NCBI GenBank assembly: GCA_963703115.1
Contig: OY969788.1
Location: 855,265 to 919,264 of the forward strand
DNA length: 64,000 nt
Source of the DNA: an uncultured Alphaproteobacteria bacterium
GTDB taxonomy: Bacteria; Pseudomonadota; Alphaproteobacteria; Sphingomonadales; Sphingomonadaceae
Direction of reading: 5' to 3'
Part shown: one piece after another, positions 2,040 through 55,561 of the stretch
How positions within the stretch are numbered: the stretch's first letter is position 1
Layout: every line of letters begins with the position of its first letter
Notes under the pieces: generated by a model
Told to the model about the DNA's origin: nothing
Seen by the model: the letters and a program-made list of their open reading frames with translations, nothing else
Database searches by the model: none
Translations under genes and position numbers: made by a program

Positions 2040-2986
2040 TGCGATTTGATCCGACGTTCGATCGCATTCCAGATCGTTGCTGCGGTGTTGGTGCCATTGA
2101 ACCCGTCCATCGCCACGATCCCGGTCGGCGAGGTGACGTTGATTTCGGTCATCAGGCCGCCGATTACGTCGATTCCGACGAACAGCAGACCACGTTTCTT
2201 GAGTTCGGGACCCAAGGCGGCGCAGATTTCCTGCTCACGCGCGGACAATTGGGTGACTTCGGCACTCCCGCCGGCGGCGAGGTTGGAGCGAAATTCCCCC
2301 TGCGCCGGGCGGCGGTTGATCGCGCCCGCGACTTCGCCATCGACTAGGATGATCCTTTTGTCTCCGTCGGCAATCGCCGGAAGGAACGCCTGCACGATGA
2401 ACGGTTCCTTGGCGATGGCGCTGAACAATTCGGCAAGCGCGGCAAGATTGGTGCCCTCTTTGTCGATCCGGAACACGCCTTCGCCGGCCTTGCCGTGGAG
2501 CGGCTTTACGACCACCTCGCCATGCTTGGCGTGGAAGGCGCGGATTTCGCTCATGTCGCGACTGATGAGGGTCGGCGGCATGAACTCGGCAAAGTCGAGG
2601 ACGAAGAGCTTTTCCGGCGCGTCGCGGACGCTTCGCGGGTCGTTGACAACAAGGGTCTCGCGCGCCACGCGCTCAAGCAGATAGGTAGCCGTGATATAGC
2701 CGATGTCAAACGGCGGATCCTGCCGCATCAGTACGACGTCGACGTCGCTGCCAAGGTCGATGCTGACCGGCTGGTCGAACGAGAAATGATCTCCTGCGAC
2801 CGGTCTCACGCGCACCGGGTGAGCGGCCGCGCGCACCCTTCCGTCTTCGTACGTCAGATCGCCAGCGCCATAATGGAACAGCTGGTATCCGCGCTCCTGC
2901 GCTTCGAGCATCAGCGCGAACGTGGAATCTCCGGCGATGGAAATGCGCTCCATCGGGTCCATCTGAACGGCGATCCTAAGGTTCAT
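2036..2986 (-). CDS. gshB: glutathione synthetase
   Basis: 316-aa ORF with the prokaryotic GshB pattern (MDPMERISIAGDSTFALMLEAQERGY, VLMRQDPPFD, ATP-grasp C-terminal half). Its 4-nt stop/start overlap with the downstream gene suggests an operon. Confidence 0.9.
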   Translation of the reverse strand: MNLRIAVQMDPMERISIAGDSTFALMLEAQERGYQLFHYGAGDLTYEDGRVRAAAHPVRVRPVAGDHFSFDQPVSIDLGSDVDVVLMRQDPPFDIGYITATYLLERVARETLVVNDPRSVRDAPEKLFVLDFAEFMPPTLISRDMSEIRAFHAKHGEVVVKPLHGKAGEGVFRIDKEGTNLAALAELFSAIAKEPFIVQAFLPAIADGDKRIILVDGEVAGAINRRPAQGEFRSNLAAGGSAEVTQLSAREQEICAALGPELKKRGLLFVGIDVIGGLMTEINVTSPTGIVAMDGFNGTNTAATIWNAIERRIKSQ

Positions 2987-3017
2987 CGGGTTGAGCTAGG
3001 CGAGGGCCGCGCCTTTG

Positions 3018-3368
3018 TCATCCCTGCCACACGTCGGGCACGTGCCTGGGCCAGCGTCCCGGAAGGACGAATATTGCATCGATTCGGGTCTCATCGCCAT
3101 CACGGCCATAGCGCTGGATGAGTTGTTCGGCGGCCACCGCCACCCGGCGCAAGCGATAATGGTCCAGTGCAAAACGCGCGCTTTCCTCGCTTGCGCGCGC
3201 CTTGACCTCGACGAACGCAAGGGTGCGTCCGCGTCGGGCGACGATGTCGATTTCTCCGCCGCGCGCCTTGACCCGGCGCGCAAGAATCCGCCAGCCCTTG
3301 AGGCGCAGTGCCCAGCAGGCCAGCGTTTCGGCCTTGCGACCGCGCCGCTCTGCCTGGCGGCGGCTCAT
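3018..3368 (-). CDS. yraN: YraN-family endonuclease (UPF0102)
   Basis: 116-aa ORF. GRKAETLACWALRLKGWRILARRVKARGGEIDIVARRGRTLAFVEVKAR matches the YraN signature. It lies downstream of rsmI, the conserved arrangement. Confidence 0.8.
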   Translation of the reverse strand: MSRRQAERRGRKAETLACWALRLKGWRILARRVKARGGEIDIVARRGRTLAFVEVKARASEESARFALDHYRLRRVAVAAEQLIQRYGRDGDETRIDAIFVLPGRWPRHVPDVWQG

Positions 3369-19216: not shown

Positions 19217-20617
19217 TCAATCGTCGGCGAACCGACTTTCCAGTGCGGTGAACATTGCACGAAGGCCCAGTGCCTCGCCCCCTTTCGGACGTCCCGGCGT
19301 GGCCGAATCCCGCCACGCGTAGGTGTCGATGTGGACCCAGGGGACCTGGGGCGGCACGAATTTTTCCAGGAACAAGGCCGCGGTGATGCAGCCCGCCATT
19401 GGCGAGTTCGCGCTATTGGCAATATCGGCAAGGTTGCTTTTGAGCATGTCGGCGTAAGGCTGCCACAGCGGCAAGCGCCACAGCGGGTCCAGCGCGTGCT
19501 CGGAAGCCGCAGTGACTTGTCCCGCAAGCTCTTCGTCATTGGCGAAGAATGGCGGCAGGTCAGGCCCCATGGCGACACGTGCTGCCCCGGTCAGCGTGGC
19601 AAGGTCGATGATGCACGAAGGCTCGCTTTCCGCCGCCTTGGCCAGGGCGTCGCCCAGGACCAGCCGGCCTTCGGCATCGGTATTGTCGATTTCTACCGTC
19701 AGCCCTAGCCGCGATTTCAGAATGTCGCCCGGGCGATAGGCCGCTCCCGAAATCGCGTTCTCGACCGCGGGGATTAGAAGGTGAAGTCGCACCTTCAGGC
19801 GTTCGGACATCACTAGCCCAGCGAGTGCAAGGGCATGGGCTGCGCCGCCCATGTCCTTCTTCATATTGCGCATTCCGCTGCCCGGCTTGATGTCGAGACC
19901 GCCCGAATCGAAGCACACGCCTTTGCCGACCAATGCAAGGCGCGGGTGGCCGGGATTGCCCCATTCAAGTTCGATCAGGCGCGGTGCGCGCGCAGAAATC
20001 GCCCCGCCTCCCACGGCTGCGATCATCGGGCAGGTTTCGGCCAACGCATCGCCCTTGGTGACGGTGACCTTGGCATCGTGATTCTTGGCAAGGTCGCGAA
20101 CCGCGTCTTCCAGCTCCGCAGGCCCAAGATCGGCGGCCGGCGTGTTGACAAGGTCGCGGACCAGCGCGGTCGCCTCGGCCTCGCGGACTATGCGTTCGAT
20201 CCGCGCTGCCTTTCCGGACAGCAGGATCCGCGGCCCGCGCCGCTGGTCGCCACAAGCTTTGTAACGGTCGAATACATGCTGAGCGAGCAGCCAGCCCAGC
20301 GCGGCGATTCCCGGATCATCGCAGGCAAGGCGATATGAGCCTTCGGGCAGCGCTTCTGCCAAGCCGGCAAGGCACCAAGGCGTCAGCTGCGCGACATTGG
20401 CGACAGTCACGGCGATTTCGAATTCGTCGGTCTTGCCGGTTGGAAGAAGGAGGAACCGGCCCTTAACCCCGCCATCGAAGCCGTTGGCCTTCATCCAGGC
20501 GCGCTGGTCGGCGGGGCGGGCTTTGGCCCAATCGTCAAAGCGTGCCTTGTCGACAAGGTGGATGGTCCGGGCATCACCGCCGCGGTCGGGTTTAAGCAGG
20601 GTAGAGAAATCCGTCAT
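19217..20617 (-). CDS. M17 leucyl aminopeptidase family protein
   Basis: 466-aa ORF with the M17 signature NTDAEGRLVLGDAL and the metal-ligand region VGKGVCFDSGGLDIKPG. Confidence 0.85.
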   Translation of the reverse strand: MTDFSTLLKPDRGGDARTIHLVDKARFDDWAKARPADQRAWMKANGFDGGVKGRFLLLPTGKTDEFEIAVTVANVAQLTPWCLAGLAEALPEGSYRLACDDPGIAALGWLLAQHVFDRYKACGDQRRGPRILLSGKAARIERIVREAEATALVRDLVNTPAADLGPAELEDAVRDLAKNHDAKVTVTKGDALAETCPMIAAVGGGAISARAPRLIELEWGNPGHPRLALVGKGVCFDSGGLDIKPGSGMRNMKKDMGGAAHALALAGLVMSERLKVRLHLLIPAVENAISGAAYRPGDILKSRLGLTVEIDNTDAEGRLVLGDALAKAAESEPSCIIDLATLTGAARVAMGPDLPPFFANDEELAGQVTAASEHALDPLWRLPLWQPYADMLKSNLADIANSANSPMAGCITAALFLEKFVPPQVPWVHIDTYAWRDSATPGRPKGGEALGLRAMFTALESRFADD

Positions 20618-37437: not shown

Positions 37438-38140
37438 ATGACGCAACAACCCACTTCTTCCGCCAGGCGCGCGGTCGTTCTTCTCTCGGGCGGGCTCGAC
37501 TCCATGGTGTGCGCGGGTCTTGCGCGCGAATCCGGCTACGAGATCCTTGCGCTGACAATCGATTATCACCAGCGCCACCGGGTCGAACTTGAAGCCGCCA
37601 GGCGGATCGCCGCGACCATCGGAGTCGCGCGCCACGTCGTCCTTCCGCTCGACCTCTCGGTGTTCGGCGGATCGGCGCTGACCGCCGATATCGCGGTTCC
37701 AAAAGGCGGAGTGGGAACGGACATCCCGGTCACCTACGTACCGGCCCGCAATATCGTATTCCTGCTCGCTATGCGTAGCATTTGCCGAAGCGGTGGAGGC
37801 GCACGACGTCTATATCGGGGTAAACAGCCTGGATTATTCGGGCTATCCCGACTGCCGCCCCGATTTCATCGCCGCGTTCCAGGCTGCCGCCAACCTTGGC
37901 ACCAAGGCGGGTGATCAAGGTCATGGCTTTGCGATCCAAACCCCACTTCAATATCTGACCAAGGCAGAAATCGCGCTGGAGGCCGAGCGCCTGGGGCTCG
38001 ATTCCGGCATGAGCTGGTCGTGCTATGACCCGACACCGGATCAGCGTCACTGCGGACTGTGCGACAGCTGCCGCTTGCGCAGCGCGGGGTTCGCGGAAGC
38101 TGGACTTGCAGATCCGACCGACTACGCGGCGCGACCATGA
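37438..38140 (+). pseudogene. queC: 7-cyano-7-deazaguanine synthase QueC, frame broken by a 1-nt indel
   Basis: The N-part has AVVLLSGGLDSMVCAG and YVPARNIVFL. The C-part is in ORF 37793..38140 (AEAVEAHDVYIGVNSLDYSGYPDCRPDF, CYDPTPDQRHCGLCDSCRLR zinc site). The frames join between 37771 and 37783, which includes a T3 run at 37781-37783. Confidence 0.88.
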
Positions 38141-39593: not shown

Positions 39594-40333
39594 TCAAGTA
39601 ACTTTGCACGCCGTCGCCAAGTCATTGAGGAAGCTTGGAAAATTTTCCTTCAATGCCCGGTCCGCAGCGGCCATGTCGACGGCCACGCCCAAATCGGCGA
39701 GGCTGGTAACCCCAAATTCGGCAATTCCGCACGGCACGATTCCACTGAAATGGCCGAGGTCTGGCGCGATATTGAGCGAGAATCCGTGCATCGTGACCCA
39801 GCGCTTCACGCGCACGCCCAGCGCTCCGATCTTGGCTTCGGCCGGTCCTTCGCCGACCCAAATGCCGATCCGTCCCGGCGCACGGTGTGCCCTGATCCCA
39901 AGGTCGCCAAGCGCGGCAATCATCCACCCTTCGAGCGCGTGGACGAAACAGCGGACATCCTTGCCCCGTCTGGCAAGGTCGAGGACCAGATAGCCGACCC
40001 GCTGGCCAGGCCCGTGATAGGTGTAACGCCCGCCGCGTCCCGCAGCGAACACCGGGAAACCCTGCGGGTTCATCAGTTCGGAGAATCAGCGCTGGTCCCG
40101 GCGGTAAAAGTCGGCGGATGCTCAAGCAACCAGACCAGTTCTCGGGCGGTGCCGGATTGCACCCCGGCGACCTGCGCCTCCATTTCGGCCAAGGCCTGTG
40201 CATAGGGCACCTGTTCTTCGCTGACGCGCCATTCGATGTCGTCGATCCCGTCCACCGCCGCGACATGGAACCAAGGCTCGCGGCTTGCAAGCCGGTTGCA
40301 AGCTGCCGCGGGTCGTGGAACACAAGGGTCCAA
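39594..40333 (-). pseudogene. lipB: lipoyl(octanoyl) transferase LipB, frame broken by a 1-nt indel
   Basis: The N-part is ORF 40073..40333 ([18 protein letters not shown]). The C-part is ORF 39594..40073 ([49 protein letters not shown]). The frames join near 40075-40080; one extra G/C would read [10 protein letters not shown]. The real start is possibly GTG at 40255. Confidence 0.85.
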
Positions 40334-43429: not shown

Positions 43430-43674
43430 GGAAACTTTACTGCTCAAAAAGGGAGCAAGTTTTTCTGAACCCGACGGTATGAGTGCATATGGCATGGCGA
43501 ATAGACTGGTATCGTTCGCCCTGCCGGTTACTTTTGCGCGCACTTGCTTTGTCCGAATTGCCTGCAAGGTCGAGTGAGCTGTGAGATCGTTATGATGCGT
43601 CTTGATCGAGATATAGTGACCATTAACGCCACTCTTTCTGCATTGCGTCGCGCGCTGGGACATTCGGCACAACA

Positions 43675-45339
43675 ATGAATTTCCGCAACATCCTAGAAAT
43701 TGCCGAGCGCTATCGCGCCGCGCTTCTGCGTTTGGCGCTGTTCGCGATAATTTCGTCCGCATCGGCACTGACCCTTCCCTGGTTTGCCGGGGAATTGTTC
43801 GGCACGGTGATTGATCGCGACGCTTCTACCTCGGTTGCAAGGCCGATAGGGTTGCTGGTTGCAGCACTGCTTGTGACGAGCATGTTCAGTGTCATCGCCG
43901 GGATCCAAACCGCGGTTCTTGAAATCCGGGTGCTGACCGATCTGCGCCAGCGAATTTTCGAACATGTCCAGCGACTTCCGATCGGTTTCCACGAGAATAG
44001 GGGTAAGGGAGATACGTTGGCGCTGATGACCTACGAGGTGGGGCATCTTTCGCATTATCTGACCGGGACCATGGCGCTTATTCCCGCCCGCCTTCTTACC
44101 GCAATTGGTGCAATCGCAGCCATGTTCTGGATCAATGCCCGGACGGCGCTGATCGTGCCCTTTCTTATTCCGGCCATTTACCTTTTTCTCAAAATCCTGG
44201 GTCGAAGCCTGCGGGGGGTGGCGGCAGCAATCCAGCATGCCGAAGCCGAGGTCGTCGAGGTTGCTGAGCAATCTCTGGACATTCTCCCGGCGACCAAAGC
44301 CTTCACTCGCGAGGTGATGGCAGCAGCGAATTATCGCGTCGTTACGGAGGAAGCCGCGCGGCTCTCGGTTAATCGCCGTCGGATTGAAGCAATGATCGAT
44401 CCCATGCTGGGGCTGATCGCTGCCGTCGCGTCAATTCTTGTATTGTTGACAGTCGGGCAGGGGTTGCGGGCGGGCAATCTGAATGTCGCCGAGCTTTTCA
44501 GCTTTCTGTTTTATGCGATGCTCCTGACCCGACCAGCAAGCGCATTGTCCCATATTTACGGAGAAACTCAGAACGCCTTGGGAACCAGCGCGCGAATGCA
44601 ATCGGTACTCGAACAATCGGTTGAGCAGATGCGGACGACGAAAAATAGCCGGCGTGCACAAGGCAAGATCGTGTTCGAAAACATCTCGTTCGCTTATCCC
44701 GGGCGGGACAGCCTGTTACGCAACCTCGACCTTGAAATTTCCCCCGGTGAGAAGATCGCGATCGTCGGGCCGAACGGTTCGGGCAAGACCGCGCTCGTCA
44801 ATCTGCTTTTGCGATATTACGAGCCGGACGGGGGGAGAATTCTCCTCGATGATACTGACATTCGCGATTATGGCTTCGCCGACTTGCGGCAGCAAATCGG
44901 GCTGGTTCCGCAAACGCCCCTGCTGTTCAATTCGACGATCCGGGACAATGTGTGCTTCGGCTCGCCAGATGCGTCGCCCGTCGATCTCAACCGCGTTCTC
45001 CAGCTGGCCCAGGCCAAGAAATTTATCGACGACCTTCCAAAAGGGCTCGAGACGACCATCGGCGACCGGGGCGTTCGTTTGTCAGGGGGACAGAAGCAGC
45101 GCCTCGCGCTGGCCCGCGCCTTGATCAAGGACCCTCCGATTCTGATCCTCGATGAAGCGACCTCCATGTTCGATCTGGGTGGGGAAGTCGCGCTGGTTGC
45201 CGGCATCGAAAAGGCGATCAAGGGCCGCACAGTAATCTTTATCACTCACCGCCTGATGTTGCTCGACCTCGCCGACCGTATTTTCGAAATTAATGACGGG
45301 AAGCTGGTGGACATTGGGAAACAGAGAACTCGAAGTTGA
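43675..45339 (+). CDS. ABC exporter, fused permease-ATPase (McjD/MsbA type); candidate lasso-peptide D protein
   Basis: 554 aa: six-TM domain, then Walker A GPNGSGKT, ABC signature LSGGQKQRLALARAL and Walker B ILILDEATS. There is no N-terminal C39 peptidase domain. It is the first gene of the lower-GC island. Confidence 0.88.
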   Translation: MNFRNILEIAERYRAALLRLALFAIISSASALTLPWFAGELFGTVIDRDASTSVARPIGLLVAALLVTSMFSVIAGIQTAVLEIRVLTDLRQRIFEHVQRLPIGFHENRGKGDTLALMTYEVGHLSHYLTGTMALIPARLLTAIGAIAAMFWINARTALIVPFLIPAIYLFLKILGRSLRGVAAAIQHAEAEVVEVAEQSLDILPATKAFTREVMAAANYRVVTEEAARLSVNRRRIEAMIDPMLGLIAAVASILVLLTVGQGLRAGNLNVAELFSFLFYAMLLTRPASALSHIYGETQNALGTSARMQSVLEQSVEQMRTTKNSRRAQGKIVFENISFAYPGRDSLLRNLDLEISPGEKIAIVGPNGSGKTALVNLLLRYYEPDGGRILLDDTDIRDYGFADLRQQIGLVPQTPLLFNSTIRDNVCFGSPDASPVDLNRVLQLAQAKKFIDDLPKGLETTIGDRGVRLSGGQKQRLALARALIKDPPILILDEATSMFDLGGEVALVAGIEKAIKGRTVIFITHRLMLLDLADRIFEINDGKLVDIGKQRTRS

Positions 45340-45464
45340 GCCGGGGGATTGAGATGCGCCCTATTCGCATTTCGACGAACTTCACGAGCGCAAGCTCCGC
45401 ATAATTCCAGATTGCCACCGCGCGCCGGTGGGGATGTCTCCAGCAGAGTGAGGAGAAAAAGAGC

Positions 45465-47354
45465 TTGAGCGGAGTGGCAGCCATTATCCGATTTGACGGT
45501 GGTGAGGTTGAACCCGGCTTGATCGAAAAAATCACGGCGGCGATGAGTTATCGGGGCTGTGACGGGATACGTCACCTTTCGCGCGGATCCATCGCGTTAG
45601 GTCATTGCATGTTACACACGACCAAGGAGTCGCTGGAAGAAACTCAGCCGCTTTGCAATGAGGACGAAAGCTTGATGCTGGTCATGGATGGCTGGCTCAG
45701 CAATTGGACTGAACTTCGCTCCGAACTGATTGCTCGAGGATCGCATTTACGCACGCGCTCCGACGCTGAACTTGTACTGCGTGCCTACGAAGTCTGGGGT
45801 GAGGATTGCCCACAGCATATCGACGGCGAGTTCGCTTTCGTCATCTGGGACCAGAACCGTCGCGAAGCGTTCGTAGCCGGCGATCACGTCGGTTTAAAAC
45901 CACTGCATTATCACTGGGATGGCCGCCAACTTGTCGTTGCCTCCGACATTGTGGGCGTGTTGGCGATGCCGGGTTTTTCACGCGAACCAAACCTGGCGCG
46001 AATATCGGAATATCTTAAATTCGAATGGGGCACGCGTGGGCAGACAATCTGGAAGGGCGTGTCTCGCGCCGTTCCCGCACACTCGATGCGATTTAGAAAC
46101 GGCCATTGCGAGAGCAGGAAATATTGGGAACCGCCGCTTGAAACCACCATTTTCTATAAGCGCGACGAGGAATATTTCGAACACTACCGGCACCTTTTTA
46201 CCGAATGCGTCCGCAGAGCATCGCGAACGCACAAGCCGCTTGCTTGCGACGTCAGCGGCGGGCTGGATTCCTCAGCTGTTTTTGCAATGGCTCATGAACT
46301 GCGGCGCAAGGGGACCCTGCCCGCACCTGGGGTCAAGGGCTACACCTATTTTTTCAAAGATGCCGAAGGCACCGAACACGACGAGATTGAATATGCGCGT
46401 GCGACCGCACGACACCTGGGGGTAGCTCTTAAAGAGGTCCCGCCTTTCCTTCCCGATATGCAGTGGTTTCTGGAGCGCGGGCGGATGGACTGTGACATCG
46501 CCGGCTATCCTAACGGAGCAATGTCGATCGCCATTGGCAAAACCCTGGTCGCCGATGGCTGCCGCGTGAGTTTGAACGGCGAGGGCGGCGATGAATTCTT
46601 GGCTGGAACTCGATTTTACTTCGCTGAGCAGCTCGCGGCGCGCGAGTGGGGCAAGTTATCGCAGACCTTTATCGAAGATACGGCCGAAATCGGTCTACGA
46701 AAAACGGCCTGGAACCTGTTGCGTTTCGGGCTTGCTCCGATGTTGCCGGTCCCGGTTTTGGAGGTGCTCCGCAATCTTCGGGAACGCCGACGGATAGGCG
46801 AGTTGGACAAAGCTGCCTGGATCAAAGCGGAATTGAGGAACTCGGCGAATCTAAAGGGATTGAGGCCTGGTCATGAACTAATGCAATTGGCCAAGTCGGC
46901 TCGTCGCTGCAAACATCTGGTCCTGAATGATCCCTTTGCGCTGGTGGTTTGGGACCAGTTCTCACGACAAAGTGCCAGAGTTGGCTACGAAATTCGCACT
47001 CCAATGTACGCAAGAGAATTCATCGACTTCTCCTTTGCCACGCCCGAGCGGATCAGGCTTCGGGGAGAGCGCCGGAAATTTATTCATGTCAGAGCGCTTG
47101 AGGGATTGCTTCCCGAAGTCGTGGCCAATCGAAAAACCAAGGCAGACTTCGGAATTGCCTTTACCCGCCTTCTTGAAATGGTGAAGAGTCATTTAATGGA
47201 TGCGGTAGATGGGGATGGTTCCGACTACCTAGACAAGAAAGGGCTCGCACGATTGTTCGAGCGGCAGCAGGCGGAGCCGGACGATTTCCGGTTGGTCTGG
47301 CATGTGTGGACGCTTTTCGAATTGAATGATATTTTGATGCAAAATGAGAATTAA
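45465..47354 (+). CDS. asparagine-synthetase-like protein lacking the Cys nucleophile; candidate lasso cyclase (C protein)
   Basis: 629 aa with a TTG start preceded by GAGGAG. The N-terminus is MSGVAAI rather than MCG. AsnB fold motifs are present (LGHCMLH, SDAELVL, GEFAFVIWD, GLKPLHY) together with the ATP-PPase loop DVSGGLDSSAVFAM. Confidence 0.8.
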   Translation: MSGVAAIIRFDGGEVEPGLIEKITAAMSYRGCDGIRHLSRGSIALGHCMLHTTKESLEETQPLCNEDESLMLVMDGWLSNWTELRSELIARGSHLRTRSDAELVLRAYEVWGEDCPQHIDGEFAFVIWDQNRREAFVAGDHVGLKPLHYHWDGRQLVVASDIVGVLAMPGFSREPNLARISEYLKFEWGTRGQTIWKGVSRAVPAHSMRFRNGHCESRKYWEPPLETTIFYKRDEEYFEHYRHLFTECVRRASRTHKPLACDVSGGLDSSAVFAMAHELRRKGTLPAPGVKGYTYFFKDAEGTEHDEIEYARATARHLGVALKEVPPFLPDMQWFLERGRMDCDIAGYPNGAMSIAIGKTLVADGCRVSLNGEGGDEFLAGTRFYFAEQLAAREWGKLSQTFIEDTAEIGLRKTAWNLLRFGLAPMLPVPVLEVLRNLRERRRIGELDKAAWIKAELRNSANLKGLRPGHELMQLAKSARRCKHLVLNDPFALVVWDQFSRQSARVGYEIRTPMYAREFIDFSFATPERIRLRGERRKFIHVRALEGLLPEVVANRKTKADFGIAFTRLLEMVKSHLMDAVDGDGSDYLDKKGLARLFERQQAEPDDFRLVWHVWTLFELNDILMQNEN

Positions 47355-47376
47355 CCCATTTAGACCGAGGTGAAGC

Positions 47377-47779
47377 TTGCCGAGCGAAAAGAGCGCAGTT
47401 GCGAATGAACCTGGCGCCAAGCCCGACAAAGCGAATGTCGGGACGAAGCTGGAATATGAAACTCCGACACTGACAATTTATGGTTCAGTCAGGGAACTAA
47501 CGGGGTCAGGGTCAGGCGGGTCTTCCGATGGTGGCATGCCCATGGCCGTCGTCGGATTCTGCTGTAAAAGAACATGTCGTGCGGGTCGGGGACCATCCGG
47601 CCGGCTTCGGGATATACCTGTTCGATTACAAGCCGGAGTTCCGCAACTCATTTGGTCATGGTCGACAATTTGGCGTCATCGCAGATGAAGTTGAGCGGGT
47701 TGTCCCCGAGGCCGTCACCATTGGCAGCGATGGCTACAGGCGGGTTTGCTACAGCTTGCTTGGGATCGAACGACAGTGA
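47377..47779 (+). CDS. lasso-type RiPP precursor (YxxPxLx3Gx5TxG leader), apparently continuing across a 1-nt frame break into a peptidase-S74 autoprocessing domain
   Basis: Frame A starts at the TTG at 47377 (GAGGTG 5 nt upstream) and reads MPSEKSAVANEPGAKPDKANVGTKLEYETPTLTIYGSVRELTG|SGSGGSSDGGM.... Frame B is open from 47501 to TGA 47777-47779 and reads ...PWPSSDSAVKEHVVRVGDHPAGFGIYLFDYKPEFRNSFGHGRQFGVIADEVERVVPEAVTIGSDGYRRVCYSLLG, the S74/CIMCD pattern with S-D-x-x-x-K. Deleting one C of the CCC run 47539-47541 fuses them into a 133-aa protein. Confidence 0.6.
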
Positions 47780-47817
47780 TCCAAACGCTTCTCGATTAAT
47801 ATCATTGGTCCCCTGTT

Positions 47818-48942
47818 TTGCTGACAACGCTGGAAGAGCATCACGGCTATCTCTCTGACGAGAGGCGCCTTGAGAGATTCCGCGAAGCAATTGGCCATGC
47901 GGTTCGGCCGGGTGATCTTGTCGCCGACGTTGGCTGCGGTTTCGGGATACTTGGACTGATGTGCCTTCAGGCGGGCGCCTCTAGAGTATGGGGGATCGAC
48001 CGAACGGACGCGATTGAAATTGCCCGGGAGAGCTTGGGTCGCGCGGGTTTTGGCGACCGCTACACCTGCATTCGTGATCATTCGTCCCGGGTGATCTTGC
48101 CAGAAATGGTTGATGTCATCGTCTGCGATAACGTCGGTTATTTCGGGATAGATTACGGCATCGTCGAAACACTGGCCGACGCTCGTCGCCGTTTCCTCAA
48201 ACCAGGCGGCCGGATAGTGCCCAGCCGGATCAGGCTGATGCTGGCCGGGGTTGCTTCGCCAGAATGCCGCGGCAAGGCAGAAGGCTGGGACGATCCGCGC
48301 GTACCCGACGAATATCATTGGCTGCGCGAATTCGGGGTCAATTCGAAATTTGCGCACATGTTTGAAACGGATGAAATCGCTACCGAGTCTCTCATCGTCG
48401 GCACGATTGATCTCAATACGGACAGCCCAGACACATTTTCATGCCAAGTGTCCCTGACTGCCACTCAAGACGCTGTACTGGATGGGCTCGGTGGGTGGTT
48501 CGAGTGCGAGCTGTCGCCGGACAATTGGATGACGAATTCACCGCTTGCGCACGATCAAATCGACAGGCCACAAATCTTTCTGCCTTTCGATACGCCGATC
48601 ACTGTTGGCGCGGGTGACAGTGTAGAAGTTTCAATCGTTGTTCGCCATGATGCGCACCTGTTCGCTTGGAGCGTGCGAGACCCCCGGACGGGCGTAAAGC
48701 AGAAACAATCTACTTGGCGAAGTCGCATTCTGGCTGAATCCGATCTGTCTCCGAAGTCTGATCGGCCATTGCAACTTAGTGCCGAAGGCCATGCGCGCAG
48801 CATTATTTGCGACTATGTCGACGGCAATCGCAGTGCGCGGCAAATTGAGGATGCCGTTTTGTCCGATCATCCCGATTTACTCCCGTCGTCCGAAGAAATC
48901 CGCCGATTTGTGGGAAAAGAATTGGCCCGGAACGCTCGATGA
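47818..48942 (+). CDS. PRMT-fold class I SAM methyltransferase with C-terminal PqqD-like (RRE) extension
   Basis: LEEHHGYLSDERRLERFREAIGHAVRPGDLVADVGCGFGILGLMCLQAGASRVWGIDRTD matches the protein arginine methyltransferase signature and SAM motif I. GGWFECELS...NSPLAH...QIFLPFDTPITVGAGDSV resembles the PRMT beta-barrel. The last ~70 aa (ARSIICDYVDGNRSARQIEDAVLSDHPDLLPSSEEIRRFVGKEL) look PqqD-like. Confidence 0.7.
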   Translation: MLTTLEEHHGYLSDERRLERFREAIGHAVRPGDLVADVGCGFGILGLMCLQAGASRVWGIDRTDAIEIARESLGRAGFGDRYTCIRDHSSRVILPEMVDVIVCDNVGYFGIDYGIVETLADARRRFLKPGGRIVPSRIRLMLAGVASPECRGKAEGWDDPRVPDEYHWLREFGVNSKFAHMFETDEIATESLIVGTIDLNTDSPDTFSCQVSLTATQDAVLDGLGGWFECELSPDNWMTNSPLAHDQIDRPQIFLPFDTPITVGAGDSVEVSIVVRHDAHLFAWSVRDPRTGVKQKQSTWRSRILAESDLSPKSDRPLQLSAEGHARSIICDYVDGNRSARQIEDAVLSDHPDLLPSSEEIRRFVGKELARNAR

Positions 48943-49799
48943 TCTTTCATCTGGAGCAATTGGCCGCAAAGCCGCAAGGTGAGATCGAAGACAGTCCATA
49001 TGACCGCTGGCTGAGCGTCGAAGGCCAGGACGTCGCGCTATTTTACCGTACGGACCAAAGCTTTTTGGTGCGGTTCCAGGATAAGGCAGATTTTGAATTA
49101 TCTGTCGGTAGGGGGGTCGTCACCTGCACGCCGGCGCCTGACGTTTCGGGTCAAACGACGATCGATCTGTTTCACAACCAGGTGATCCCCCTACTTCTCA
49201 ATCATCAGGGCGAATTGGTGCTCCATGGAAGCGCTGTTGCTGGAAGCACTGGCGCCCTGGGTTTCATCGGGCAATCGGGCAGCGGCAAGTCAACGATTGC
49301 AGCCTATTTTGCGAAGGCAGGCCATCCGTTCATGACCGACGATGGCCTGTTTTTGAAGGAAGCGGGATCCGCATATAACGTTGAACCTTATCGTCCCTAC
49401 CTGCGTCTTTGGTCTGACAGCAATCAAGCGGTGCTTGGCCGGAAGCCTCCCACCGCGGAGGAGGGAGAAGACAACAAAACACTGATCGATGCCGGGCCAT
49501 CACTTCCATTTCAGGAGACGCCGTTGCCGCTGGCTGCGCTATATCTTCTAGGCAGTAGGGAGGTGGAGAAGGTTTCGGTCGAACGCATGAAGCCCGACCT
49601 GGCGCTATTGGCGTTGCTAAAGCACTCCTTCATCCTTGATGTGGACGATCGCCAACGGTTGAAAGCCCATTTCGAACGTTTGGCAAAGCTGTCGGAAGCA
49701 ATTCTATGCTTCACTCTCGAATATCCGCGGGATTATGGGGTGTTCCCCGAGTTGATCCCCACGGTTCTTAACCACGCGTCATCGGAAGGTGTCTTATGA
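48939..49799 (+). CDS. HPr-kinase-related serine kinase (RiPP/lasso tailoring kinase type)
   Basis: 286 aa with an ATGA overlap with the methyltransferase gene. VLHGSAVAGSTGALGFIGQSGSGKSTIAAYFAKAGHPFMTDDGLF matches the HprK C-terminal P-loop region (Walker A at 49269-49295). Confidence 0.75.
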   Translation: MIFHLEQLAAKPQGEIEDSPYDRWLSVEGQDVALFYRTDQSFLVRFQDKADFELSVGRGVVTCTPAPDVSGQTTIDLFHNQVIPLLLNHQGELVLHGSAVAGSTGALGFIGQSGSGKSTIAAYFAKAGHPFMTDDGLFLKEAGSAYNVEPYRPYLRLWSDSNQAVLGRKPPTAEEGEDNKTLIDAGPSLPFQETPLPLAALYLLGSREVEKVSVERMKPDLALLALLKHSFILDVDDRQRLKAHFERLAKLSEAILCFTLEYPRDYGVFPELIPTVLNHASSEGVL

Positions 49800-50080
49800 A
49801 TTTAACCGACAAGATGGTCGCCTCGGACGAAGTCGTCGCTCGTGACGTGGGAGGCGAAACTGTCCTTCTGAATCTCGCGAGTGGCACCTATTTCGGTCTC
49901 AACTCGGTCGGTGCGCGAATTTGGACCATCGTCGAAAATGACGAAAACTTAAGCATGTCGCAAGTTTGCGACACCTTAGCGAATGAATTTGATGTCTCGC
50001 GTCAGCAGTTAGAGGGCGATGTACTGAACCTTGCGACTGAACTCGTCGAACAAAAGCTTGTCGTCATCAAGGAAGAATAG
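49796..50080 (+). CDS. PqqD-family protein (lasso B1 / RiPP recognition element)
   Basis: 94 aa with an ATGA overlap with the kinase gene. VVARDVGGETVLLNLASGTYFGLNSVGARIWTIVENDENLSMSQVCDTLANEFDVSRQQLEGDVLNLATELVEQKLV is a textbook PqqD pattern. Confidence 0.85.
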   Translation: MNLTDKMVASDEVVARDVGGETVLLNLASGTYFGLNSVGARIWTIVENDENLSMSQVCDTLANEFDVSRQQLEGDVLNLATELVEQKLVVIKEE

Positions 50081-50123
50081 ACTGTTTCGCATCACGGCAA
50101 AATAACATCATCTGATCGTCAAA

Positions 50124-50966
50124 TCAGAGTATCTGGCTGACGTCACTTAGCTCGCTCAATTCAGGAATACCGAATAGCTCGGCCCATGTTTTCGGCTGGC
50201 ATAGGTCGGAAGTCCCCACCGGGATGTAATGAAGGAACAGCAGGTCACAAAATTGCCGACCAGGGTTGCGAGGCAGCGGTTCACGGAAATGCCACTGATT
50301 GGTACCGGAAAATAAAACCGCGTCTCCCGGCTGCAAGACCTCCTGCGTAAAGCGCATTTTCGGGTCCGATGGCACGGCGTTAAAGTCGACGCTCTCCAGT
50401 TCGGACCTTGTTTCGGGCCATGGTACAGGGCGGCTGAAGCTGATTGGCCACGGGTCACTTTGGTCGATGCAAATGTCGAGCGTCCATTTTGCCGAAGGAG
50501 CATCAAGATGGGGCCGACATACGCCGCGGCCAGTATACAGGCTCAAGAAATTGTAGCTCGGCTCAACCAACTCGCCGGCGAGTTCGGACACTGCTTCAAC
50601 TAGTCGGGATTGCAGTTCGGTGAAGGGCGGCCAGCGATGAACAATAAAGCGGCCGAACTCTTCAGCTTCGGTCAGATTGAGGGATTCGCGGGGGATCTTC
50701 CTGATCGTGTCCCGGATTTCGTCCAGCTGCAATTCGCTCAGGAAGTCGGACACAAACCGCTGGGTGAAGTCCGGTGCTATGCGCAAGGGATCGAAGCTGC
50801 GTTCAAACTCCTGCAGGCGAGCGGGTGCAACACGCGCAATGATTTCTTTCGCCTCGATATATTTTGTCAGCCAGATCGAATCATACCAGCGCTTTTCCCG
50901 CGCAATCGGGTTTGAGCCCTGTTTCCTAGCGGCTGTCAGCACTTTGATCCGTCCATTTTCGTTCAC
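50124..50966 (-). CDS. putative Fe(II)/2-oxoglutarate-dependent oxygenase
   Basis: 280 aa. LSLYTGRGVCRPHLDAPSAKWTLDICI carries an HxD (His153/Asp155). LQPGDAVLFSGTNQWHFREP carries a distal His226. The spacing fits the 2-His-1-carboxylate facial triad of a cupin. This is motif-level evidence only. Confidence 0.45.
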   Translation of the reverse strand: MNENGRIKVLTAARKQGSNPIAREKRWYDSIWLTKYIEAKEIIARVAPARLQEFERSFDPLRIAPDFTQRFVSDFLSELQLDEIRDTIRKIPRESLNLTEAEEFGRFIVHRWPPFTELQSRLVEAVSELAGELVEPSYNFLSLYTGRGVCRPHLDAPSAKWTLDICIDQSDPWPISFSRPVPWPETRSELESVDFNAVPSDPKMRFTQEVLQPGDAVLFSGTNQWHFREPLPRNPGRQFCDLLFLHYIPVGTSDLCQPKTWAELFGIPELSELSDVSQIL

Positions 50967-51025
50967 TTAAACAGATTTCGAGTCGCCCTCACTGCTTGTT
51001 TTCCGATGCAGGAGCCAATTCGAAT

Positions 51026-52192
51026 TCAATTCTTCACCCGATCAGGGCGACTGCGAAGCAGGTCGATAATACGCCTGACATATAGCGCCGCTAATGGAAA
51101 ATTTTGCATGCTCGGATATTTTCCGCGCAGGAAATTCGCAGGAGGAAGTGTCCGTTGAGCCAGAAATCTGACTTTGTTGCGAAGCCCTTTCACAGCTTTC
51201 AGATCCTGTAGCGCCCGACCTGCCTGGCCCAGTTCAAGCAGATAGATAGAGGGACCGGACGCAGAAGCGGGTGCCTGGCCTAGGCGCTCCATCACGCCTG
51301 ACGATACAACAGTATCGAAGTGGCTCATCGCGAACTTCAAACCATCGAGGCAAACCGGCGCCAGTTCCATTCGAATGGCGGTCTCGCAAAACGCGCTCCA
51401 CTCTGCTTGCGAAAGTGCACCGGCAAGGAGGTGAATATCATAGGCCCAGATCAGCCGGTCGCCGCCATAATAAGTCACACCGTCGACCATGTATGGACTG
51501 GTGATATGGGTGGCGCGATGCATGGACGCATGGATCAGCATTGTCGCGCGATCCATCGTGAAGGCATTGTCGTCGAGGAGCGGCAGGACTCGCTTGTTCG
51601 CGGCGCAATCAGCGAAAACAAGCGTTTGGCGAAGCGCCATCGAATTCATCGCTTGCCAGTGGAGATCGATGACATGGTTAGTCCCATCCCCTGAAGCGAA
51701 GTTCCAGATTTCCTGGAGTTCAAGATCGTCGGATCTTCCAGCGCACGGCGGGGCCAAGCAAAAGCCGCATTTGGCGAGCGCAAGCCGGGTCTGTTCCAAC
51801 TCCTCCCGCTTTACCAAAAGGTCGGTGTCTCCACGTGCGCGAGTGGCGGGTTTCGCGTAAAGATCGTAGGCTAAAGCGGTGCCTTTCAGGATAAGGGATT
51901 TGATCCCATTTTGACGAAGTTCGGCAAGAAGCCGTGTGAGCATTTGTCTATGACGGACTTCCCACATTTCCTGCGCGATTGCCTGCTGGTGCAAGCGTTC
52001 GAACACTTCCTTGGGCCATCCAATCGGCCGGCCTTCGATCAGCAGGCCAGCGATGCCATGATAGAGCGCGCGATCAACAACGGCCGCCCAAGTCGATGCG
52101 TGATTCCAATGATCCGGCCAGGCGGTACAGCAATTGCCCAACGTTCTTGAAAAGAACCGATCGATTGAATCGCTCAAATTGGCCATTGCCAT
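51026..52192 (-). CDS. NTP_transf_5-type uncharacterised nucleotidyltransferase
   Basis: 388 aa. GIKSLILKGTALAYDLYAKPATRARGDTDLLVKREE and HVIDLHW fit the family that accompanies HprK-like kinases and PqqD proteins in kinase-containing lasso clusters. Confidence 0.65.
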   Translation of the reverse strand: MAMANLSDSIDRFFSRTLGNCCTAWPDHWNHASTWAAVVDRALYHGIAGLLIEGRPIGWPKEVFERLHQQAIAQEMWEVRHRQMLTRLLAELRQNGIKSLILKGTALAYDLYAKPATRARGDTDLLVKREELEQTRLALAKCGFCLAPPCAGRSDDLELQEIWNFASGDGTNHVIDLHWQAMNSMALRQTLVFADCAANKRVLPLLDDNAFTMDRATMLIHASMHRATHITSPYMVDGVTYYGGDRLIWAYDIHLLAGALSQAEWSAFCETAIRMELAPVCLDGLKFAMSHFDTVVSSGVMERLGQAPASASGPSIYLLELGQAGRALQDLKAVKGLRNKVRFLAQRTLPPANFLRGKYPSMQNFPLAALYVRRIIDLLRSRPDRVKN

Positions 52193-52397
52193 TGATTACT
52201 GGGGCCGGATTGACCACCCGTCAATTTGTGGACCACTTCGCTGGATCACCGGACATCCTTCTTGACGGTCAGCCCTCCGACCACCGCCGAAGCGGACGGA
52301 CTACGCAGGTGCGAAGCCGAGGCTTGGAAAAATTTTGTCCTTGGGGACTGTTCACTATCACGCCGCGAGGCCAAGGTAGCGGTCAGATGCGTCCAGC

Positions 52398-53589: not shown

Positions 53590-55561
53590 ATGTGCGGAAT
53601 AGCGGGAATATTGGGGGAAGGGCGCGCGCGACCCCTCGCTCATTGCGGCGATGACCGCGCGGATCAACCATCGCGGGCCCGACGACCAGGGATTATGGAG
53701 CGATCACGCGGCCGGGATTGCGCTGGGCCACCGCCGTCTTGCAGTGATCGACCTGTCACCCGCAGGCTTTGAGCCGATGCACTCGGCGAGCGGGCGATTC
53801 ACGATCAGCTTCAACGGTGAAATCTACAATTACCAGGACCTTCGCGACGTCCTAGAGTCAGGCGGGGAAGCGCCTAAGACCGGTTGGCGCGGCCATAGCG
53901 ATGTCGAAGTGTTCCTTGAGGCGTTGGAGCGTTGGGGAATTGAACGGGCACTGTCAGCCGCAGTGGGCATGTTCGCCTTCGCCTTGTGGGATAACAAGGA
54001 ACGAAAATTGTGCCTGGTGCGCGACCGCTTTGGGGAAAAGCCGCTTTATTACGGCTGGGCAGGCAGGGACCTTGTTTTCGCCTCGGAACTGAAATCGCTG
54101 GTTGCCCATCCCCGCTTTGAGCGCCTGCTTAACCGCGACGCGCTGGATGCATATTTGCGGCACAACTATGTGCCTGCGCCAGCGAGCATCTATCGTCACG
54201 CATTCAAGCTGCAACCTGGCACGATCCTGACCCTGGCGCCGGGGGTCGGGCAAATGGCCGAGGCTCCAGCTGTGGGCGAAGCGGGCAAGCATTGGTCTCT
54301 CGACGCATATTACGATTATCGCGCGACCGTCTCAAAGGGTGCCGCCGACAGCTTTAGCGATCATGGCGAAGCGCTCGACGCCCTTGAAGATGTGCTGGAA
54401 CGGGCGGTCGGCGACCAGGCGGTTGCCGATGTCCCGGTGGGGGCCTTCCTGTCGGGCGGGATCGACAGTTCGACGATTACCGCGCTGTACCAGCGCCAGA
54501 CTGCGCATCCGGTGCGCACCTTTTCGATCGGATTCAACGAAGACCGCTACAACGAGGCGGTCCATGCCAAGCGTGTCGCAGCGCACCTTGGGACCGTCCA
54601 TGACGAGCTTTACGTTACCGATGCACAAGCGCGCGAGGTCATTCCCCTGCTGCCGGATATGTACGATGAACCGTTCGCGGATTCCTCGCAGATCCCGACC
54701 TTCATCGTCAGCCGGTTCGCGCGCCAGCAGGTCACCGTTGCACTGACCGGCGATGGCGGGGACGAGATGTTCGCTGGCTATAATCGCCACCTTCTGGTTC
54801 CGCGATGGCGACGGCGCCTGAGCCGGCTTCCGTCGGTACTGCGCAGGCCCGGCGGGGCACTGGCGGCCCGAGTCCCTGGACGCCTGGTCGAACTTGCTGC
54901 GCGGTCGATCGGTGCAAGCGACCCGCGCCAGGCCGCAGCGAAGATGCGCAAGGGACTGGCGCTTGCTGCCGGGGCGAAATCGCTGCCCGCCGTCCTGGAA
55001 GGGCTGCTTGATAACTGGGCCTTGCGCGGTGACATCGTCGATGATGCCGACTCGCGGCACGAGCCCGACCTGGACTTTGGAGCGGCAACCGGGGAAGCAG
55101 AGAAACTCGCCGCTTACGATGCACTGACCTACTTACCCGACGACATCCTTGCCAAGGTCGACCGGGCGTCGATGGCAGTTGGGCTGGAAACGCGGGTGCC
55201 ATTCCTGGACCACCGGGTGGCGGCGGTCGCGGCGCGCATTCCAGGACATATGAAAATCCGTGGCGGGAAGGGGAAGGTGATCTTGCGCGATTTGCTCTCC
55301 CGCCACGTGCCACAGGAATTGCTCGACCGCCCCAAGGCCGGCTTCGCGGTCCCGGTTTCCCAGTGGTTGCAGGGTCCCTTAAGGGACTGGGCAGAGGACC
55401 TTCTTTCGCCCACGGCGCTCGCCGAAGCCGGGGTCCTTAATGTCAAAGCGATCCGAAATCGATGGCTTGCACACGCCAGGGGCAGCGAAGACGCGGCCAA
55501 TGCCATATGGGCGGTGCTGATGTTTCAGGCGTGGCGCCGAGAGTGGAATCCGACGATTTAG
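53590..55561 (+). pseudogene. asnB: asparagine synthase (glutamine-hydrolysing) family amidotransferase, frame broken by a 1-nt indel
   Basis: The ATG at 53590 gives MCGIAGILG, with the Cys2 nucleophile. The rest is in ORF 53651..55561 (INHRGPDDQGLW, GHRRLAVIDLS, FNGEIYNY, SGGIDSS). The frames join at the G5 run 53613-53617; G4 would read ILGKGAADPSLIAAM. Confidence 0.88.

Follow-up and report, generated by a model that had tools for sequence, protein, structure and literature searches.

A putative lasso-peptide-type gene cluster with an S74-tailed precursor in an uncultured Sphingomonadaceae bacterium

Kinase-containing lasso-peptide clusters, such as those of paeninodin (pade), pseudomycoidin (psm) and SyanK of Sphingobium yanoikuyae, encode an AsnB-like cyclase (C), a split B1 protein of the PqqD family, an HprK-related kinase with a His-Lys-Asp-Asp set and an ABC exporter, and their enzymes act on the linear precursor (PMC8498205, PMC9266682, PMC6993621). 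A locus with the same parts is reported here. It occupies positions 43430-52397 (the island) of a 64-kb stretch of DNA (the window, meaning the whole stretch analysed) from an uncultured Alphaproteobacteria bacterium of the Sphingomonadaceae (assembly GCA_963703115.1, contig OY969788.1, positions 855,265 to 919,264, forward strand). We consider it likely that the island is a lasso-peptide-type cluster for a peptide made by the ribosome and then modified after translation (RiPP), and that it belongs to a widespread subfamily whose precursor is tailed by a Peptidase_S74 (S74) domain, with a chemistry that we infer from the genes.

An original prediction, made from the letters alone, had likened the parts list to the paeninodin and pseudomycoidin clusters. 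The likeness holds: beside C and B1, both have an HprK-like kinase, an exporter and a nucleotidyltransferase, the last being uncharacterised in the pseudomycoidin cluster (psmN) and an NTP_transf_5 protein here. The precursors of paeninodin, pseudomycoidin and SyanK are short and end in a Ser that is the kinase target, whereas here a 75-residue S74 domain follows the core, and the residue before the predicted cut varies. Moreover, no methyltransferase of the protein arginine methyltransferase (PRMT) fold is reported for those three clusters, their gene order differs, and the leader peptidase B2 is missing in the window. The S74 follower, the PRMT-fold methyltransferase and the lack of a C-terminal Ser set the locus apart from the known kinase-containing lasso clusters.

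Other described systems share part of this set. With the canonical class II lasso peptides (microcin J25, astexins, caulosegnins) the family has in common a Thr at position -2 of the leader, an acidic acceptor at core position 7-9 and the logic of C, B1, B2 and the exporter D; it differs from them by a C-terminal domain of a self-cleaving type, by the near absence of aromatic plugs, and by C and PqqD proteins that score below the lasso cut-offs. A methyltransferase and a 2-oxoglutarate (2OG) oxygenase within a lasso cluster have precedents in the lassomycin-type O-methyltransferase StspM and in canucin CanE, both of which recognise the linear precursor and not the folded lasso peptide (PMC8498205). 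Here, in contrast, the methyltransferase has a PRMT fold and a helical C-terminal extension, and the oxygenase matches no Pfam family. The HPr-rel-A system (TIGR04352, TIGR04355, TIGR04353) also combines a distant HprK-like kinase with a PqqD protein, and the window too has polysaccharide neighbours.

For the C-terminal domain, the likeness is with the self-cleaving intramolecular-chaperone (ICA) domains (Peptidase_S74) of MyRF and of phage proteins, which have the same SD...K dyad motif, beta-rich core and C-terminal position in the polypeptide. Unlike these, the domain described here is minimal (~75 residues), has no C-terminal trimerising coiled coil, follows a leader and core of ~60 residues with no triple beta-helix, and belongs to a RiPP cluster rather than to a fibre. 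ICA domains also stand in cis with the polypeptide that they release, an in-frame link that is broken in the window and, apart from L072, present in the other relatives in which both parts were detected.

No description of an S74-tailed lasso or PRMT architecture was found in the searchable full-text literature, which omits most subscription journals, and the S74-tailed lasso subfamily is apparently undescribed. The claim that the architecture had not been described before thus stands as far as that literature goes; what it had not foreseen is a large conserved family extending beyond this genome.

The precursor family and its cassette in relatives

Translated in frame 1 from TTG 47377, the window encodes MPSEKSAVANEPGAKPDKANVGTKLEYETPTLTIYGSVRELTG, then the core SGSGGSSDGGMPMAV. 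The leader scores above the cut-off of the lasso_leader_L3 model (Table 1) and terminates in ..YETPTLTIYGSVRELT-G; the leader motif Y..P.L...G.....LT, which places Thr at -2, is a conserved family trait, kept in 118 of 123 members. The core starts SGSGGSSD.., with Asp8 as its acidic residue. Frame 2, read from 47552, encodes SDSAVKEHVVRVGDHPAGFGIYLFDYKPEF...LLGIERQ, which is the S74 domain. The profile of the precursor family matches the MyRF ICA domain (7dc3, E 9.8e-5), and its motif S-x4-K, at the N-terminal edge of the domain, aligns with S587 and K592 of MyRF. Ser59, Asp60 and Lys64 (SD...K) are invariant in the precursor alignment, the window reading SDSAVK. In MyRF and in phage endoNF, the Ser/Lys dyad cleaves the bond immediately N-terminal to Ser (PMC8326128).

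The two precursor parts of the window, joined, served as the query for the family. At E<=1e-10, 226 proteins were recovered among 1.84 billion representatives (50% identity), and the best 150 of these 226 are mostly 120-165 residues long and matched from the leader through the end of S74. Leader, core and S74 form one in-frame protein in 186 clusters of homologues, of ~120-140 residues. The databases name these homologues 'tail fiber domain-containing protein' or 'hypothetical'.

Core statistics were taken over 118 family precursors. Most cores have 15-19 residues, among which Gly, Ser, Thr, Ala, Met and Asn abound and aromatic ones are nearly lacking. In 57 precursors the first acidic residue falls at position 8, in 41 at position 9, and 107 carry Asp or Glu somewhere in positions 7-9. 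Ser or Thr occupies position 3 in 90, and 92 have Gly at position 4. The residue preceding the predicted S74 cut is Ala (30 precursors), Thr (26), Pro (22), Ser (8) or another residue, and Val in the window; P0001, the closest in-frame relative, reads SGTGGSSDGGMPMAV before the cut and SD after it.

Variants of this layout were met in a few relatives. Five loci (L014, L029, L044, L048 and L053) have tandem precursors, two per locus, each with leader and S74, and two more (L031 and L061) have two S74 matches, the second leader going undetected by our script. Multi-copy precursors are common in RiPP clusters. P0376 (746 residues) reads as an AsnB-like C protein with a leader-core-S74 precursor fused to it in frame; either the fusion is genuine or a stop was overlooked in gene calling. 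P0388 and P0414, considered as stand-alone S74 genes, were discarded as truncated gene calls: the DNA has an in-frame leader and core upstream of each.

To describe the surroundings of the precursor, one genome per species was scanned, which gave 71 loci, and the cassette was sought by tblastn with the window proteins. Forty of these loci have at least 6 kb on either side of the precursor and make up the full-flank set. The 71 loci come from Alpha-, Beta- and Gammaproteobacteria, Cyanobium, Acidobacteriota and Chloroflexi (Anaerolineaceae, Caldilineaceae) metagenome-assembled genomes; isolates among them are Aurantiacibacter sp. D1-12, A. sediminis JGD-13, Mesorhizobium ventifaucium and Erythrobacter crassostreae. 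In the full-flank set, an AsnB-like C, a kinase and a PqqD protein were each found in 37 of 40 loci, B2 in 30, an ABC exporter homologue (within 9 kb of the precursor) in 25, a PRMT-like methyltransferase in 24, NTP_transf_5 in 18 and the 280-residue oxygenase-fold protein in 9. The C homologue lies directly upstream of the precursor in 37 of the 40, and a lasso-type leader and core adjoin C in 64 of the 71 loci, again 37 of 40 where flanks are full. In 18 of the 40 loci, C, precursor (A), methyltransferase, kinase and B1 are colinear within 7 kb, an order that recurs in Proteobacteria, Cyanobium and Acidobacteriota. These parts, their motifs, their conservation and their linkage are plain observations on the DNA.

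The database names of the homologues, and the fact that PF13884 typically occurs in the tail fibres and tailspikes of phages, could suggest that the S74 ORF (open reading frame) is a prophage tail-fibre remnant lying within the cluster by chance. We give this next to no probability: S74 always adjoins C, kinase and PqqD in the relatives, it follows the leader-core in frame wherever both were detected, except in three split forms, and no other phage gene was seen among the ORFs examined between 36 and 64 kb of the window.

Clustering of the remaining ORFs of the relatives revealed a ~154-residue protein in 46-47 loci. It is a Transglut_core3 protein (PF13471, 69-81 bits), the family of lasso B2 leader peptidases, and since it is present in most relatives, the family has every gene of a lasso cluster. 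A hidden Markov model (HMM) built from 38 family B2 proteins detected B2 in 47 of the 71 loci, the intact locus of Mesorhizobium ventifaucium STM4922 (L050) being one with B2. The original prediction had remarked that the island lacks a B2 protease, and this was borne out for the window, whose six-frame translation over the whole 64 kb gave no match to the B2 model at E<=1. As a distinctive trait, however, the absence applies to the window and not to the family, in which it is the minority state. A candidate at 39750-40034 (tblastn E 0.057) was rejected; by its RGG..TYHGPGQ motif, we take this ORF to be the octanoyltransferase LipB. Seven full-flank relatives carry the cassette without B2, including both Aurantiacibacter isolates, D1-12 and JGD-13, in which the cassettes are otherwise intact and the precursors in frame.

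Polysaccharide genes recur within 9 kb of the precursor in relatives. Named by eye, they include a gene for a 465-residue multi-pass membrane protein of O-antigen-ligase/Wzy-like appearance (16 loci), one for an RmlB-like dehydratase (14), and Wzc-like (13) and Wza-like (12) genes.

The frame change between core and S74 domain

The precursor listed in the original prediction is not a single ORF: leader and core lie in frame 1 (47377-47550) and S74 in frame 2 (47552-47779), a +1 change that the prediction had not reported. The extra base sits exactly at the boundary between the core and the catalytic Ser/Thr codon, which is the predicted self-cleavage site. Such an offset of 1 was found in the window and in one relative, L072, a 1349-bp contig of metagenome assembly GCA_030154725.1; elsewhere, wherever both parts were detected, the offset is 0. 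Window and L072 DNA are 74.5% identical over 322 nt, and since their alignment is gapless the extra base is at the same place in both, the junction reading GCC GTC g TCG GAT in the window and GCG GCA a ACT GAT in L072. As L072 has the same offset, the frame change is ancestral.

Selection on the two halves was estimated by omega (Nei-Gojobori) between window and L072, with protein-guided alignment for the flanking genes. Read in its own frame, S74 gave an omega of 0.09 (proportions of synonymous and non-synonymous differences, pS 0.62 and pN 0.11), and the leader-core gave 0.09-0.13. These figures compare with 0.16 for the C-terminus of the flanking C gene and 0.12 for the N-terminus of the methyltransferase gene, whereas omega rose to 1.5-5.4 when the same stretches were read in wrong frames. 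Synonymous divergence (dS) between window and L072 is above 1. Judging from these ratios, purifying selection has acted on leader-core and S74 alike ever since the lineages of window and L072 separated. This makes a simple pseudogene unlikely, and a single assembly error in the window would not account for the pattern.

The latter alternative would have it that the window contains one in-frame leader-core-S74 gene in which base 47551 is a sequencing indel. Indel errors are plausible in this assembly in general, because at least two other genes of the window are frameshifted, the exopolysaccharide (EPS)-type AsnB gene (at a G5 homopolymer, 53590-53651) and QueC. The source contig, of 1.98 Mb and lacking close relatives in the database, also hints at a metagenome-assembled genome built from long reads. 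The site GCCGTC G TCGGAT is not a homopolymer, though, and L072, an independent contig, has the same offset in another local sequence (GCGGCA A ACTGAT) with no gap over 322 nt. We judge this artefact to be decidedly improbable.

Alternatively, the window cluster could be a decaying relic, non-functional after loss of B2 and frameshifting of the precursor, with the other ORFs intact because inactivation is recent. Several observations go in this direction: the lack of B2 in 64 kb even at E<=1, the frame change that separates core from S74, the 45 non-conserved frame-1 codons past the core, for which the corresponding L072 stretch has stops, the other disrupted genes of the window, and the truncated C gene (363 residues) and truncated precursor match of the closest cassette relative, L063. 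Against these, the offset is common to L072 at 74.5% DNA identity and dS above 1, S74 and leader-core are as constrained as the flanking enzyme genes, and the seven other genes of the cluster are full length. In addition, the cultured Aurantiacibacter strains have B2-less cassettes with in-frame precursors, and neither B1 nor B2 is needed for pseudomycoidin to be produced in vivo (PMC6993621). Decay is thus an unlikely account, but the one among the alternatives to which we would leave some weight.

With purifying selection acting on both halves of the precursor, production of the S74 domain most likely continues, be it by separate initiation at ATG 47528 or through +1 recoding. The S74-frame ORF is open from this ATG, which lies seven bases after GGCGGG, and would yield MVACPWPS/SDSAVKEH.. 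(the slash marks the predicted cut). By analogy with the naturally split locus L081 described below, ATG 47528 could serve as a separate S74 start. Frame 1 past the junction meets an immediate stop in L072 (..MPMAAN-stop). A programmed +1 signal was looked for at the window and L072 junctions: they share no slippery sequence, the window has no 0-frame stop there, and no upstream Shine-Dalgarno-like element is conserved. The window copy is a natural experiment, with S74 uncoupled at the exact cleavage site and yet conserved, and it can show whether the domain works in cis only.

Two other loci have a precursor that is interrupted where the core ends or just beyond. In L081 (Ga0307981_1007143, 2801-3231), the split is a natural one: a 50-residue A gene with leader and core GTGGQGNDSGLNMTMTMT ends ..MTMTMT-stop, and two bases on begins the ATG of a stand-alone 91-residue S74 protein, MLMAI/SDSRVKDN..; a C gene lies upstream of this split precursor and a PRMT-like methyltransferase gene downstream. 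In L004 (VMTF01000282.1, 8105-8452), TAG replaces the codon of the catalytic Ser (..MTKN-stop-DPAVKEN..), and the S74 frame after it is otherwise intact.

Enzymes and proposed maturation

Among NCBIfam models, the 629-residue C protein matches the lasso cyclase best (NF033535, 316 bits), followed by asn_synth_AEB (249) and the XrtA/PEP-CTERM amidotransferase of EPS loci (211). The EPS-type AsnB protein (636 residues) encoded further along the window shows the opposite pattern, with 516 bits for TIGR03108, 435 for asn_synth_AEB and 170 for the lasso model. Placement of the C protein among polysaccharide amidotransferases, one part of the outcome that the original prediction had set against itself, was not what was found, the lasso model beating the EPS model by 316 to 211 bits. 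Since the C protein fits the lasso model best and the EPS-type AsnB does the reverse, the RiPP reading is favoured. The C protein and its homologues start MSG(I/V)A.., Ser2 replacing the glutaminase Cys across the family. Glutamine-dependent AsnB enzymes have an N-terminal Cys nucleophile.

A profile of 30 homologues of the kinase had HPr kinase (1jb1, E 1.4e-5) as its best PDB match, and H96, K117, D135 and D160 are invariant in the 30. In lasso kinases, the His-Lys-Asp-Asp set is conserved and catalytically required (PMC9266682). Although 28 of the 30 homologues match HprK_rel_A or HprK_rel_B, they do so far below the model cut-offs. The window kinase itself reaches 31.7 and 24.2 bits, against cut-offs of 200 for both TIGR04352 and TIGR04355, and the PqqD protein 23.4 against 35 (TIGR04353); with scores this far below the cut-offs, neither is a member of HprK_rel_A/B or PqqD_rel_X.

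It could nevertheless be argued that no RiPP is involved, and that the genes belong to the adjacent exopolysaccharide locus, as in the TIGR04352-TIGR04355 cassettes, and modify a sugar or a protein. The island indeed has EpsG, glycosyltransferases, GDP-mannose genes and the EPS-type AsnB next to it; in 12-16 related loci, Wzy-like, RmlB, Wzc and Wza genes stand within 9 kb, and the best NCBIfam matches of the kinase are HprK_rel_A/B. These matches are, however, the very low ones given above, a lasso-type leader and core lie beside C in 64 of 71 loci, B2 is present in 47 of them, and C, which lacks the glutaminase Cys, fits the lasso model better, a true EPS-type AsnB being encoded 6 kb away. 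We regard this alternative as very improbable.

The methyltransferase has 812 clusters of homologues. Its AlphaFold model (predicted local distance difference test, pLDDT, 92.6) was matched by Foldseek to PRMT3, PRMT1 and CARM1 with E ~1e-28 and a target-normalised template-modelling (TM) score of ~0.8 over ~305 residues, which gives it the type I PRMT fold of a Rossmann domain plus beta-barrel. Of the PRMT-RRE (RiPP recognition element) fusion that had been proposed, the PRMT fold is thus supported by the model, and the PqqD-like tail is not: the last ~75 residues form helices only. Compared with the PqqD family of the cluster, this tail gave an hhalign probability of 1.2%, and it had no Pfam match at E<=5. 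As read by eye, Asp104 and Asp112 presumably stand where the double-Glu loop of type I PRMTs is expected, and MTNSP where the THW loop is expected; both Asp residues are invariant in the homologue alignment. Because these positions differ, and because few cores contain Arg (17 of 118), arginine is probably not the substrate. Met was found in the core tail in 26 of 26 loci with a PRMT-like gene and in 5 of 16 without (Fisher p = 1e-6, phylogeny ignored), and where the gene is missing the cores contain more Lys, Phe and Pro. This correlation may point to the target of the methyltransferase.

The 280-residue protein had no match in sequence searches of Pfam, NCBIfam or PDB. Its AlphaFold model (pLDDT 90.8) gave Foldseek matches with E 3.5e-8 to 4e-6 and TM 0.4-0.6, and all the top ones are Fe(II)/2OG oxygenases (ALKBH6, SnoN, HygX, EctD and proline hydroxylases). 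The residues H153-x-D155...H226 are invariant in its homologues.

From these parts we infer a pathway, in which each chemical step, the threaded topology and the tailoring targets are predictions. PqqD would bind the Y..P.L leader, and the HprK-like kinase would modify the linear precursor, together with whichever of the NTP_transf_5 protein, the 2OG oxygenase and the PRMT-fold methyltransferase the locus encodes. In lasso pathways already described, StspM, ThcoK, SyanK and CanE all work on the precursor while it is linear (PMC8498205). The S74 Ser/Lys dyad would then cut before the invariant Ser and so set the C-terminus of the core. B2, in most relatives, would remove the leader after Thr-x, the AsnB-like C would join the new N-terminus to the Asp or Glu at position 8 or 9 in a macrolactam of 8 or 9 residues, and the ABC transporter would export the product. 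The residue left by S74 cleavage varies, so that the kinase target is not a C-terminal Ser of the paeninodin type; Ser or Thr at core position 3 is a candidate. For pseudomycoidin, the phospho-hexose has been proposed as a modification-based lock (PMC6993621), an idea that is attractive here because the core tails are without aromatic plugs.

Several points weigh against a lasso-peptide-type cluster with an S74-tailed precursor. No product has been observed for any family member. The cores have nearly no aromatic residues for a steric plug, 26 of 118 precursors start their core with Asn or Thr, an unusual first residue in lasso peptides, and a C-terminal Ser as in paeninodin is missing from the precursor. 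The C and PqqD proteins stay below the lasso-specific NCBIfam cut-offs (316 against 525 bits for C, 61 against 80 for PqqD). Self-cleavage is predicted from the Ser/Lys dyad alone; in the MyRF ICA domain, a C-terminal coiled coil drives the trimerisation needed for cleavage (PMC8326128), whereas the mini-S74 ends ~20 residues after the PEAV motif (..DGYRRVCYSLLGIERQ-stop) and about as far past the Pfam model, without a coiled coil of the MyRF type and, given this short end, without room for a trimerising one. In the window copy itself, the B2 gene is absent and frame 1 continues for 45 non-conserved codons past the core (residues 59-103, starting with the second Val), and other genes of the assembly, QueC and EPS-type AsnB, are frameshifted. 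On the other side, the leader is above the NF033521 cut-off, C scores best against the lasso cyclase and PqqD is above the Pfam cut-off, in agreement with the original reading of an atypical lasso-peptide-like RiPP system. On balance, we retain the lasso-peptide-type cluster as the likely explanation.

A bolder proposal, for which we have tentative confidence at best, is that the family follows a new logic of lasso maturation, with a self-removing S74 follower that is selected even when uncoupled and a PRMT enzyme acting on Met tails. The follower may be a temporary stopper or an oligomerisation module that sets the C-terminus of the peptide. Its maintenance when uncoupled, by +1 in the window and L072 and as separate genes in L081, may imply +1 recoding or a role in trans. 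The PRMT-fold enzyme may install a new modification, for instance an S-methyl-Met sulfonium, in place of a Lys, Arg or aromatic plug.

Should the family function as we suppose, a self-cleaving follower domain, borrowed from the chaperones of phage tail fibres, would be added to RiPP biosynthesis. There would also be a large untapped lasso-like group, present in at least 71 species-level genomes and counting ~200 representatives at 50% identity, of small peptides rich in Gly, Ser, Thr and Met, in environmental Proteobacteria and other phyla. This would raise the questions of which reactions an HprK-like kinase and a PRMT-fold methyltransferase carry out on cores of this kind, and of how a lasso is locked without aromatic plugs.

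The island and its setting

The genes of the island are collected in Table 1. Domain scans agree with the operon that had been predicted (ABC exporter, AsnB-like C, precursor, PRMT-fold methyltransferase, HprK-like kinase and PqqD), as well as with the convergent pair of a 2OG-oxygenase-like and an NTP_transf_5 protein, the former by the Fe/2OG fold of its model. The ABC exporter is an MsbA-type half transporter by NCBIfam, the NTP_transf_5 protein has a GDTD motif at residue 121, and all seven non-precursor genes are full length when compared with homologues.

Table 1. Features of the island, with window positions and the evidence for each
Feature	Position	Strand	Evidence
ABC exporter (D-like), 554 residues, without peptidase domain	43675..45339	+	ABC_membrane 118 bits, ABC_tran 119 bits
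AsnB-like macrolactam synthetase homologue (C), 629 residues, TTG start	45465..47354	+	Asn_synthase and GATase_7; NF033535 316 bits
Leader peptide, 43 residues (..KLEYETPTLTIYGSVRELTG), frame 1, TTG start	47377..47505	+	NF033521 (lasso_leader_L3) 26.7 bits (cut-off 19)
Predicted core SGSGGSSDGGMPMAV, 15 residues, Asp8 = candidate ring acceptor	47506..47550	+	Family pattern
Extra base G, shifts S74 domain to +1 frame	47551	+	Three-frame translations
Mini Peptidase_S74 domain, 75 residues, frame 2	47552..47779	+	PF13884 30.9 bits (cut-off 22)
PRMT-fold S-adenosylmethionine methyltransferase, 374 residues, TTG start	47818..48942	+	PrmA, Methyltransf_25 and PRMT_C matches
HprK-like P-loop kinase, 286 residues	48939..49799	+	TIGR04352 31.7 bits (cut-off 200)
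PqqD-family RRE protein (B1), 94 residues	49796..50080	+	Pfam PqqD 59.8 bits (cut-off 23.4); lasso_PqqD_Bac 61 bits (cut-off 80)
Fe(II)/2-oxoglutarate oxygenase-fold protein, 280 residues	50124..50966	-	Predicted fold only; no family match
NTP_transf_5 nucleotidyltransferase-family protein, 388 residues	51026..52192	-	PF14907 103 bits

The three consecutive TTG starts noted earlier are present at 45465, 47377 and 47818. The first corresponds to the conserved MSGIAGI N-terminus of cyclase homologues and the last to the conserved ..LEEH N-terminus of methyltransferase homologues, both in homologue alignments; GAGGTGA precedes TTG 47377. Both ATGA overlaps said to link the methyltransferase, kinase and PqqD genes were also found, at 48939-48942 and 49796-49799.

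Lower GC over ~9 kb, as first noted from counts by hand, was confirmed by sliding windows and by GC at third codon positions (GC3). The island has 55.1% GC against 61.5% for the remainder of the window, and the lowest value among 149 other 9-kb windows slid along the 64-kb stretch is 58.4%. GC3 is 0.57-0.665 in island genes and 0.70-0.76 in flanking genes. The hand counts of 56% (49801-49900) and 47% (50101-50200) were right, and the 63% stated for 20001-20100 was measured as 64%. Scans for promoters and terminators gave signals not above those of shuffled controls. As had been remarked, no tRNA, integrase or meaningful flanking repeat delimits the segment; insertion boundaries could not be defined from such elements around it, and composition is the sole ground on which it is called an island.

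The island adjoins EpsG, the EPS-type AsnB, GDP-mannose genes and glycosyltransferases. The EPS-type AsnB gene, the second of the AsnB family in the window (53651-55561), lies next to EpsG. Its canonical MCGIAGIL start, at ATG 53590, and the main ORF 53651-55561 lie in different frames, the shift being located at the G5 run near 53607-53612, and the gene at 53590-55561 is either a pseudogene or the site of an assembly indel. QueC likewise appears as two overlapping ORFs that do not share a frame (37438-37914 and 37793-38140), with the break following ..VPARNIVFLL. Taken together, the breaks in QueC and AsnB suggest sporadic assembly indels.

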